From the IMG/VR virus record IMGVR_UViG_2541047843_000007: 9,265 nucleotides of DNA; one strand, 5' to 3'. The translations under genes and the position numbers were made by a program. The stretch comes from a virus. Lineage: Duplodnaviria; Heunggongvirae; Uroviricota; Caudoviricetes. Shown here piece after piece: positions 3,175 through 5,413 of the stretch. Numbering within the stretch: position 1 is the first letter of the stretch; each line of letters opens with the position of its first letter. Under the pieces are notes generated by a model that was not told the DNA's origin, did no database searches, and saw only the letters and a program-made list of their open reading frames with translations.

Positions 3175-3232
3175 TTAATTTGCTCCAGATGCAAAGAATC
3201 GCCGCAGCATGGCCACGGTGAATTTTGGGCAT

Positions 3233-3255
3233 AAAAAAACCCAGCCGAAGCTGGG
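3233..3255 (-). terminator. Rho-independent terminator (minus strand) between the 147-aa ORF and the tailspike gene.
   Basis: Minus strand reads GC-rich stem CCCAGC (3255..3250), UUCG tetraloop (3249..3246), GCUGGG (3245..3240), then a 7-U run (3239..3233). It sits ~20 nt past the stop of the ORF at 3275..3718. Confidence 0.6.
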
Positions 3256-3274
3256 TCGTTGCGTTGGTTATCTG

Positions 3275-3718
3275 TCAGTAATTATGTACTGAAGGAGGTA
3301 ATTCTTTATTCTTAAGTCTCATCCATGCGGAAAGATTCGTTGGTCCGTCTGGCTCATTGATATCAACATCTCGTGTGTGATTGATTAAAACGTCTCTCGC
3401 CATATCGATAATACGGGAGAACTCATAACCGCAGTCATGACATCTGCCGGAATAGTTCGATTGAATTTGTTTTAGCGCCGGATACAGTTCGCGGAATAAT
3501 GCCTGTGAGCGGTTGGCATAATCCCATAGCCATACAAGGCTGTTTGCTTCTTTTGCAGAAAGCTCGTTGGTTTTCTTCTCTTGTTTGCCGATGAACTCAC
3601 CTTCAAGCACTACCCTGTGGATGTACTCTACTGCTTGTGGTATCTGAGATGCATCAAGCTCTTCAATACTTTCCACATTGAAACGCTGATGAATCATTGC
3701 ATAAGCTTCTGGGTACAT
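3275..3718 (-). CDS. Hypothetical protein, 147 aa, no recognised family; possibly the 3' remnant of a longer gene cut by IS911.
   Basis: 444-nt ORF on the tailspike strand, followed by a terminator. No convincing SD before the first ATG. The frame stays open upstream into the IS911 end (stop only at 3746..3748, inside the IS), consistent with 5' truncation. Contains a CHDC motif, but no domain I can name. Confidence 0.45.
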
Positions 3719-3808
3719 TAGATGCTTTTTGCTGACTGAAGTGGTTTACTGAATTTGGCCACCTGAACAGAGGTGATATGCTCACCTCAGAACAACACAG
3801 GTGCCATA

Positions 3809-4111
3809 ATGAAAAAAAGAAATTTCAGCGCAGAGTTTAAACGCGAATCCGCTCAACTGGTCGTTGACCAGAATTACACCGTGGCAGATGCAGCCAGCGC
3901 TATGGATGTCGGCCTTTCCACAATGACGCGATGGGTGAAACAATTACGTGATGAGCGGCAGGGAAAAACACCAAAAGCCTCCCCTATTACCCCGGAACAA
4001 ATTGAAATCCGTGAGCTCAGGAAAAAGCTACAACGTATTGAAATGGAAAATGAAATATTAAAAAAGGCTACCGCGCTCTTGATGTCAGACTCCCTGAACA
4101 GTTCTCGATAA
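3809..4111 (+). CDS. IS911 OrfA (helix-turn-helix and leucine-zipper transposition regulator), 100 aa.
   Basis: Translation [21 protein letters not shown]...[16 protein letters not shown] matches IS911 OrfA as recalled. The tool ORF starts at 3773, but the canonical start is the ATG at 3809. Confidence 0.85.
4060..4066 (+). promoter_or_regulatory. Programmed -1 ribosomal frameshift slippery heptamer A-AAA-AAG, which fuses OrfA to OrfB to make the OrfAB transposase.
   Basis: AAAAAAG at 4060..4066 is in phase with orfA codons TTA AAA AAG. The orfB frame is -1 relative to orfA (3809 mod 3 = 2; 4138 mod 3 = 1). Frameshifting at A6G is the established IS911 mechanism. Confidence 0.7.
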
Positions 4112-4137
4112 TCGGGAAACTCAGGGCGCGTTATCCT

Positions 4138-4956
4138 GTGGCCACTCTCTGCCATGTGTTCGGGGTCCATCGCAGCAGCTACAAATACTGGAAAAACCGT
4201 CCTGAAAAGCCAGACGGCAGACGGGCTGTATTACGCAGCCAGGTACTTGAACTGCATGGCATCAGCCACGGCTCTGCCGGAGCAAGAAGCATCGCCACAA
4301 TGGCAACCCAGAGAGGCTACCAGATGGGGCGCTGGCTTGCTGGCAGACTCATGAAAGAGCTGGGGCTGGTCAGCTGTCAGCAGCCGACTTACCGGTATAA
4401 ACGTGGTGGTCATGAACATGTTGCTATCCCTAACTACCTTGAACGGCAGTTCGCCGTGACCGAGCCAAATCAGGTGTGGTGCGGTGATGTGACCTATATC
4501 TGGACGGGTAAGCGCTGGGCGTACCTCGCCGTTGTTCTCGACCTGTTCGCAAGAAAACCAGTGGGCTGGGCCATGTCGTTCTCGCCGGACAGCAGGCTTA
4601 CCATGAAAGCACTGGAAATGGCATGGGAAACCCGTGGTAAGCCCGTCGGGGTGATGTTCCACAGCGATCAAGGCAGTCATTATACGAGCAGGCAGTTCCG
4701 GCAGTTACTGTGGAGATACCGGATCAGGCAGAGTATGAGTCGGCGTGGAAACTGCTGGGATAACAGCCCAATGGAGCGCTTCTTCAGGAGTCTGAAGAAC
4801 GAATGGGTGCCGGCGACGGGCTATGTAAGCTTCAGCGATGCAGCTCACGCAATAACGGACTATATCGTTGGATATTACAGCGCACTAAGACCGCACGAAT
4901 ATAATGGTGGGTTACCACCAAACGAATCGGAAAATCGATACTGGAAAAAACTCTAA
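4138..4956 (+). CDS. IS911 OrfB (DDE transposase catalytic domain), normally expressed as the OrfAB fusion by -1 frameshifting.
   Basis: Uninterrupted 272-codon ORF in the -1 frame relative to orfA. Integrase-type DDE context is visible (WCGDVTYIW; [10 protein letters not shown]; [11 protein letters not shown]). Confidence 0.8.
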
Positions 4957-4986
4957 CTCGGTGGCCAGTTTTTGTTGACCACTTCA

Positions 4987-5157
4987 ATGCAACAGTTCGC
5001 TATTGCAGGGGCGGCATCGGTTCGCCCTTTCAACCCGATTTTATCGGTACAGCATTCACGAAAAAACATTTTAACCGGAGCAGACTTTAAACAACCAAGA
5101 ATGAAAAGCTTGCTCGAAAAGCTTTGGGATATTTTGAAACAACAAGGCCGTCCATGA
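4987..5157 (+). CDS. Small hypothetical ORF (56 aa from the ATG at 4987); possibly the distal part of a gene truncated by IS911.
   Basis: The ATG is the first triplet after the IS911 right end and has no SD. The stop overlaps the next start (ATGA at 5154..5157), suggesting membership of an operon. Confidence 0.3.
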   Translation: MQQFAIAGAASVRPFNPILSVQHSRKNILTGADFKQPRMKSLLEKLWDILKQQGRP

Positions 5158-5312
5158 GTTTTACGGATAACTGGTCAGACGAAGAATTCATTCGTCAGAT
5201 AAAAGAATTAATCGGTAACGAAGGAGATATTCATGTCACTTGCAACCACAGTGAAGGAGAGCAAGTTACAGAGACGCATGTACACGCAGAAAGCTCTCTG
5301 GTATCGCCATAA
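5154..5312 (+). CDS. Small hypothetical early protein, 52 aa, immediately upstream of erf.
   Basis: ATG at 5154 with AAGG about 7 nt upstream. ATGA overlap with the preceding ORF. The position matches the small kil/arf-type genes that precede erf in P22-like phages, but no sequence recognition is claimed. Confidence 0.4.
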   Translation: MSFTDNWSDEEFIRQIKELIGNEGDIHVTCNHSEGEQVTETHVHAESSLVSP

Positions 5313-5413
5313 TGGTGACCGCGAAGGAATGCGGGTATGCCTTAATTTGTCCCGAGTCGAAGTATTAAATCAGCGTTATTTCCTTGGGCCGTGTCCATTC
5401 TGAGAGCAATCAT

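Follow-up and report, generated by a model that had tools for sequence, protein, structure and literature searches.

A single IS911/ISEc52-type insertion sequence at the probable scar of a 29.8-kb core deletion in a CUS-3-like prophage

A CUS-3-like prophage that has probably lost its core

We have analysed a stretch of 9,265 nucleotides (nt) from a Caudoviricetes record of the IMG/VR database, IMGVR_UViG_2541047843_000007, hereafter the window, in which an endosialidase tailspike gene and the erf-containing early-left arm of a P22-type phage lie on either side of a complete insertion sequence (IS). With a probability that we put at roughly 0.8, the window belongs to a CUS-3-like, P22-type (Lederbergvirus) prophage at argW from which the central 29.8 kb have been deleted, a single IS of IS911/ISEc52 type standing at the scar. 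An IS-mediated deletion of about 30 kb, or recombination between two IS copies to the same effect, had been proposed in a preliminary description made from the sequence alone, and the proposal is supported by flanks that match an intact prophage almost throughout, by the size of the gap between them and by the lack of a target-site duplication around the IS.

The intact argW prophage of Escherichia coli S88 (locus L007) served as the reference, together with CUS-3 of E. coli K1 RS218 (CP000711, L001). In the alignment, window positions 1..3737 correspond to S88 L007 3567..7303 at 100% identity, and positions 4987..9265 to 37130..41407 at 99.88%. The S88 interval between these segments (L007 7304..37129, 29,826 bp) is missing from the window, with one IS in its place; some 25 further complete genomes have these segments at a distance of 29,826-29,828 bp, the normal spacing. 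Alignment to an intact CUS-3-like genome, suggested earlier as a check, thus mapped both endpoints on S88 and gave the same picture with CUS-3, whose positions 2298-5904 and 36317-40207 match the window at 98.5% and 99.8%, respectively. AAGACTC heptads of neuO type stand beside an endosialidase tailspike gene with 98.5-100% DNA identity to CUS-3 and S88, the combination that marks a CUS-3-like prophage. As in the argW prophages CUS-3, S88, APEC O1 and ATCC 11775, the neuO repeats, the tailspike gene and ant are found on one side and the genes from erf to torI on the other, in the same order and orientation; unlike CUS-3 and S88, the window has an IS where they carry the core.

The gene order of CUS-3 runs from attL through int, neuO, the tailspike gene (2526-5471, minus strand), ant (5572-6495, minus strand) and immI to the ejection, head, terminase and lysis genes, Q, nin, replication, cII, cro, cI and N, and ends with cIII (36052), kil (36168), erf (36577) and attR (40207). 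In S88, ant has 903 nt (L007 6841-7743) and the match to the window stops inside it, at L007 7302/7303. On the ant side, the missing interval holds 147 codons for the N-terminal part of Ant, two genes of the arc/mnt type (Arc family), one for a ClpP-like protein and one for a YafO toxin; its virion part comprises three ejection protein genes and those for head completion, coat, scaffold, portal and terminase, and the remainder consists of the lysis cassette, Q, the nin region, replication genes, cII, cro, a LexA-type repressor, an N-like open reading frame (ORF) and a 156-aa ORF. None of the S88 genes of this interval is present between the ant remnant and cIII in the window, and no complete functional phage gene set is found there. 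With the core went the repressor, N and Q, the promoters PL and PR and that of the late genes, the lysis functions and, apart from the tailspike gene, all the virion genes. The earlier view of the window as a cryptic prophage that keeps the tailspike gene and the erf arm is upheld, and, judged by gene content, the remnant would not be inducible and would bring about neither cell lysis nor particles. Related prophages retain int, neuO and the tailspike gene towards argW and, opposite these, cIII, erf, abc2 and torI; in all the relatives examined the int/intS end lies at argW and torI lies next to dsdC.

The insertion sequence and its junctions

The features that make up the scar are the following.

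3275..3736, minus strand: 3' remnant of ant, 462 nt, the C-terminal 153 codons of 300 (Pfam P22_AR_C, E 7e-29)
3734..3739: left deletion junction, ant context GCTGAC followed by the IS left end TGAAGT
3737..4986, plus strand: complete IS3-family element of IS911/ISEc52 type, 1250 bp (inverted repeats, orfA/orfB, identical copies elsewhere)
4984..4989: right deletion junction, IS right end TCA followed by the ATG of the cIII-family ORF
4987..5157, plus strand: complete cIII-family ORF, 56 aa, the same as S88 WP_001183771.1 (coding sequence 37130-37300; PHROG 550)

The IS begins with TGAAGTGG and ends with CCACTTCA, termini of the type 5'-TG...CA-3', and its 27-nt inverted repeats (left, 3737-3763; right, 4960-4986) are imperfect, with 78% complementarity. 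The product of orfA (3809..4111) matched HTH_Tnp_1 (E 6e-14) and that of orfB, which is read in the -1 frame as far as 4956, matched rve (E 1e-31); a slippery heptamer A AAA AAG at 4060-4066, in register with orfA, is a predicted -1 frameshift site that would give OrfAB. Because copies 100% identical to the window element occur in several E. coli chromosomes (L002, L003, L005 and L006), the IS appears to be a recent and presumably active element, and its recognition as an IS does not rest on chance similarity. RefSeq (PGAP) names these identical copies IS3-like element ISEc52 family. With labelled copies used as a proxy for the ISfinder reference sequences, the window IS shows 97-98% identity to plasmid copies labelled ISEc52 and 94.2% to a Shigella dysenteriae copy labelled IS911. 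On these identities it is an IS911 relative of ISEc52 type, for which 'IS911-like' is a fair name and plain 'IS911' a loose one; the complete IS911 of the preliminary description is a complete IS3-family element that may not be IS911 in the strict sense. The element shares with IS911/ISEc52 its length, its end sequences, orfA (HTH) and orfB (DDE/rve) in the 0 and -1 frames, the A AAA AAG motif and the formation of 3-bp duplications on simple insertion, and differs from a typical insertion of that type, with its target duplication of 3 bp or occasionally 4 bp, in that the window copy has none.

Both inverted repeats and the unequal flanks had been recognized before, and both observations were reproduced. 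In the window TTTTTGCTGAC runs into TGAAGTGG on the left and CCACTTCA into ATGCAACAG on the right, so that GAC faces ATG and no 3-bp target-site duplication is present. An identical copy that forms a simple insertion in the tailspike gene of SF-088 is bordered by a perfect 3-bp duplication, ACG/ACG. Since the IS makes such duplications on simple insertion, their absence from the window reflects a rearrangement and not a property of the element. In AH21I008 (L005 20280..20300 and 21535..21545), where the IS forms a simple insertion in ant, the 3-bp duplication is imperfect, with ATC to the left of the IS and ATT to its right.

The left breakpoint falls inside the ant coding sequence, where S88 reads GCTGAC followed by TAGCATATTTACAGC. 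At the right breakpoint S88 reads AGAAGGAGCATCCT and then ATGCAACAG, whose ATG is the start codon of WP_001183771.1; in the window this ATG abuts the IS and its GGAG Shine-Dalgarno sequence has been cut away. No microhomology was found between the two S88 breakpoints. The longest ORF within the ant remnant (3275..3718, minus strand) is the 147-aa ORF described previously to the left of the IS, and it encodes the P22AR C-terminal domain of Ant. Both flanking ORFs had been thought to be truncated and to lack a Shine-Dalgarno sequence: ant is indeed truncated, whereas the right-hand ORF is complete and lacks only its GGAG. We also considered a naturally compact, satellite-like element, and rejected it given that the breakpoints cut a coding sequence and split a Shine-Dalgarno sequence from its ATG, and that both flanks match an intact prophage, at 100% and 99.9% identity.

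The 56-aa ORF at 4987..5157 matched PHROG 550, 'CIII' (E 1e-22), had no Pfam match and showed no similarity to CUS-3 cIII in BLASTP, and would thus be CIII at the family level only. Segment 4987..5153 represents the S88 allele and not the cIII/kil allele of CUS-3. Near-identity to CUS-3 starts only at 5154, the CUS-3 cIII-kil segment corresponding to L001 36052..36320; the IS has no part in this mosaic boundary. No kil homologue was found in the window.

Related scars in other genomes

Among 5,426 complete RefSeq E. coli genomes, the exact right junction occurs in one, CEA212U, and the exact left junction in none. Sixteen draft contigs from several assemblies contain the right junction, with single-nucleotide polymorphism (SNP) variants at 7437 and 5373; GCA_002911255.1, GCA_003569975.1, GCA_003570265.1, GCA_003570465.1 and GCA_000951755.1 are among the assemblies that carry it. 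Logan contigs from four samples or more have the left junction, which, of the contigs retrieved with the 147-aa product of the ant remnant, is present in L016 (seen in four samples) and L017 only. Other argW prophages carry comparable scars.

CEA212U: GAT / IS / ATG; right junction that of the window, left junction 254 bp further into the ant remnant
19AR1321 and 19AR0253: TAA / IS / CAA; 103 bp more of ant kept, right junction at window position 5139
SF-088, copy 2: GTT / IS / CTA; an ejection-gene remnant joined to window position 8917
HUE1: ATA / IS / AAG; a different P22-like argW prophage

Each of these scars holds one identical IS without a duplication, and they are independent deletions bounded by the same IS. 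In AH21I008, ESBLEC_HM50 and OZ547099 the IS forms a simple insertion in ant and the prophage is otherwise intact. An IS911-type element is also hosted by Sf6, another P22-like, argW-integrating and serotype-converting phage, in its nin region (PMC3630932); in Sf6 the element has simply inserted and the phage is viable, whereas the window IS marks a deletion that removed every growth function.

Several patterns suggested by these genomes were set aside. Four independent IS ends that fall within about 380 bp of one another could suggest that ant is an insertion hot spot, and this was rejected as an ascertainment bias, since the query consisted of the ant remnant and the IS. The eight copies in argW P22-like prophages (L002, L003 with two copies, L004, L005, L006 and the window) share one orientation, with orfA directed towards erf, and a dedicated search for an IS of opposite orientation in ant returned no genome, the events being few and the discovery query biased; we make no claim of an orientation bias, for the same two reasons. 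The 147-aa product of truncated ant is not a specific marker of the left junction, as frameshifted ant alleles elsewhere give the same product.

The same prophage has been eroded by other IS types in MS8345 (L023) and FDAARGOS_1300 (L024), in which the tailspike and morphogenesis genes have been removed and erf has been split by IS3-family copies with an AL1L pseudoknot and by an IS4; this IS4 is situated some 100 bp upstream of the cIII-family ORF discussed above. A metagenomic contig (L010; ENA ERZ27277962 k141_21630) joins the ant remnant and endosialidase tailspike gene to ybhB/bioA-bioB-bioF-bioC-type genes instead of neuO/int/argW, which would mean that the integration context differs or that the contig is a chimera.

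Origin of the deletion

As to the route, we give about even odds to a transposase-mediated adjacent deletion from a resident IS. The IS would first have inserted just upstream of the cIII ATG, between this codon and its Shine-Dalgarno sequence, and a transposase-mediated adjacent deletion would then have extended leftward from the left end of the IS into ant; the CEA212U scar might represent a further extension of 254 bp or a parallel event. An early arrival of the IS at cIII is suggested by the right junction, which is common to a wider set of strains and around which flanking SNPs have accumulated, and which the window shares with CEA212U while differing from it on the left. A comparable course has been documented for IS150, also of the IS3 family, in the E. 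coli long-term evolution experiment, where the IS came first, the deletion left no target duplication and was sometimes extended later, and where a single IS without a target duplication stands beside deletions of up to about 49 kb (PMC11708052). The pair formed by the window and CEA212U resembles the IS150 deletions in its shared right and receding left junction, and differs from them in that the IS belongs to a different group and that, with no dated ancestor series, the order of events is inferred.

The alternative that competes most directly is homologous recombination, which we regard as possible, if unlikely. Two IS copies in direct repeat, one in ant (with GAC duplicated) and one before cIII (with ATG duplicated), would have been joined by a RecA-dependent crossover that excised the core and one IS, and the end product would be identical, a single IS with hybrid GAC/ATG flanks. 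The route is made plausible by SF-088, which has two identical copies in the same orientation within one such prophage, and the simple insertions of AH21I008, ESBLEC_HM50 and OZ547099 show that the IS does enter ant. However, to produce a common right and different left junctions in the window and CEA212U, recombination would need an additional ant insertion and crossover for each lineage, and at these sites neither two copies nor a simple insertion appeared in any of the complete genomes or the JGI metagenomes.

The search results also contain points that weigh against our own interpretation. The missing simple insertion concerns either window site, and applies equally to the resident IS from which an adjacent deletion would have started; with no intermediate found, adjacent deletion and two-copy recombination are not separable. 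The exact pair of junctions occurs in none of the complete genomes, which leaves the join seen in the window without independent confirmation, and all the other public contigs with either junction end inside the IS, where one IS and two IS copies with a core between them look alike. A scan of JGI metagenome contigs for the reciprocal junction of a simple insertion in ant and for the left junction of the window gave no match and was uninformative.

Two of these points bear on assembly collapse, in which two IS copies around an intact core would have been merged into one and the ant remnant joined artificially to cIII; reciprocal junctions, GACCACTTCA-GAC-TAGCATATTTACAGC and GGAGCATCCT-ATG-TGAAGTGGTTTAC, would then be expected. 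Besides the contigs that stop within the IS and the absence of the exact configuration from complete genomes, such an artefact would fit the start of the window in a tandem heptad repeat, a typical contig break point, and the median of three places per E. coli genome that match the query of ant remnant and IS. We nevertheless consider it improbable. A two-copy repeat normally breaks a short-read contig, so that a contig crossing the whole IS suggests that it was resolved. Moreover, closed genomes hold real single-IS scars of the same kind, and because one of them, CEA212U, has the identical right junction, a real deletion is much more likely.

Routes other than adjacent deletion, two-copy recombination and collapse have, taken together, little claim to consideration. 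An IS-independent deletion, by illegitimate recombination or a double-strand break, with the IS inserted later or captured at the break, is very improbable, for even though insertion into breaks without target duplications has been proposed by Ngan et al. for some rearrangements (PMC11708052), a later ordinary insertion would have left a 3-bp duplication and none is present, the breakpoints lack microhomology, and the pairing of one right junction with two different left ones speaks for repeated action of a resident IS.

Expression of the retained arm

The transposase genes are read in the same direction as the erf arm, and no plus-strand terminator was predicted after orfB. Promoter-like sites on the plus strand of 4987..5413 were not found in the scan. 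Now that PL, N and the late promoter have been removed, any transcripts of the erf arm would have to come from read-through out of the IS, which is possible at a weak level. The operon had been called promoterless in the preliminary description; the loss of PL and N and the lack of a predicted plus-strand promoter in 4987..5413 make this plausible, as a deduction that leaves room for transcription from the IS. A hybrid outward promoter formed from TTGACC in the right inverted repeat (4975-4980) was considered and rejected, the candidate -10 hexamers at a spacing of 16-18 nt (TCGCTA, CGCTAT and GCTATT) being poor and the scan showing no plus-strand promoter.

Implications

IS-driven erosion of a prophage to a cryptic remnant is ordinary, and recurrent in this prophage family. 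We found no paper in the literature on this particular CUS-3 derivative, which is a further well-resolved case, accompanied by nested relatives, of prophage erosion by an IS3-family element and opens no new question. The junctions are clean lineage markers for K1 and extraintestinal pathogenic E. coli strains. Strains that bear the scar have probably retained the phase-variable neuO locus (the window includes just its 5' repeat tract, and relatives have the gene) and lost the capacity to be induced and to produce CUS-3 virions; annotators should not take an endosialidase tailspike gene, or erf, as a sign of a live prophage.

The endpoints destroy ant and spare the tailspike gene, neuO and int. 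It is conceivable, and in our opinion quite doubtful, that the recurrent removal of the core by an IS of constant orientation is a selected domestication rather than neutral decay. If so, the deletions would have been kept because they eliminate the killing functions and the antirepressor while capsule O-acetylation is retained, and the IS would also supply read-through transcription for the erf/abc2 arm.

Other features of the window

Outside the scar, the window contains the following.

1..70, minus strand: poly-psi contingency repeat of the neuO 5' end, 10 heptanucleotides GAGTCTT (AAGACTC on the gene strand); Tandem Repeats Finder, 10.0 copies, 100%
229..3174, minus strand: endosialidase tailspike gene, intact, 981 aa; an ORF in a region 100% identical to the S88 tailspike region, counterpart of CUS-3 siaK1
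3238..3257, minus strand: intrinsic-terminator-like hairpin and T-run between the ant remnant and the tailspike gene; 8-pair stem with 5 GC pairs, tail TTTTTATG
5154..5312, plus strand: small conserved phage ORF, 52 aa, equivalent to CUS-3 coding sequence 36317-36475
5233..5403, plus strand: small conserved phage ORF, 56 aa, equivalent to CUS-3 coding sequence 36396-36566
5414..6019, plus strand: erf (Pfam ERF, E 3.5e-44)
6019-6402, plus strand: 127-aa ORF
6426-6722, plus strand: abc2 homologue, anti-RecBCD (RefSeq annotation in relatives)
9065..9265, plus strand: torI/xis-like gene (RefSeq annotation in relatives)

The tailspike gene and erf are divergent and 2239 bp apart, in agreement with the approximately 2.2 kb given before, and the terminator placed in this interval corresponds to the minus-strand hairpin and T-run at 3257..3238. 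Two small ORFs had been counted between the IS and erf, where we count three, the cIII-family ORF and the overlapping pair at 5154..5312 and 5233..5403 upstream of erf, which match PHROG 2123 and PHROG 1723. The retained early-left arm (5414..9265, plus strand) extends from erf through torI with its accessory ORFs and matches CUS-3 36317-40207 at 99.8%.

The left edge of the window lies within the neuO repeat tract, position 1 being CUS-3 position 2298 in the annotated repeat_region 2235-2367, and the right edge is the stop codon of torI; the body of neuO and the chromosomal flanks are outside. Of the neuO gene previously reported as kept, the window therefore includes ten heptads of the 5' end and not the whole gene. 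The on/off phase of this O-acetyltransferase is set by the repeat number and is not readable from the partial tract.

Four SNPs, at 8165, 8175, 8181 and 8734, are private to the window in comparison with S88, CUS-3, CEA212U, 19AR1321 and the draft contigs. The first three fall within 17 bp, in the Ead/Ea22-DUF551 ORF at 7633..8205, and this cluster resembles a short conversion tract that came from a paralogue in a different prophage. Finally, the 'attR core' of the deposited CUS-3 sequence (L001 40192..40207) corresponds to window position 9045, before the torI/xis-like gene, whereas in chromosomes torI lies within the element and adjoins dsdC; on the right, the actual prophage probably extends past the end of the deposited CUS-3 sequence.

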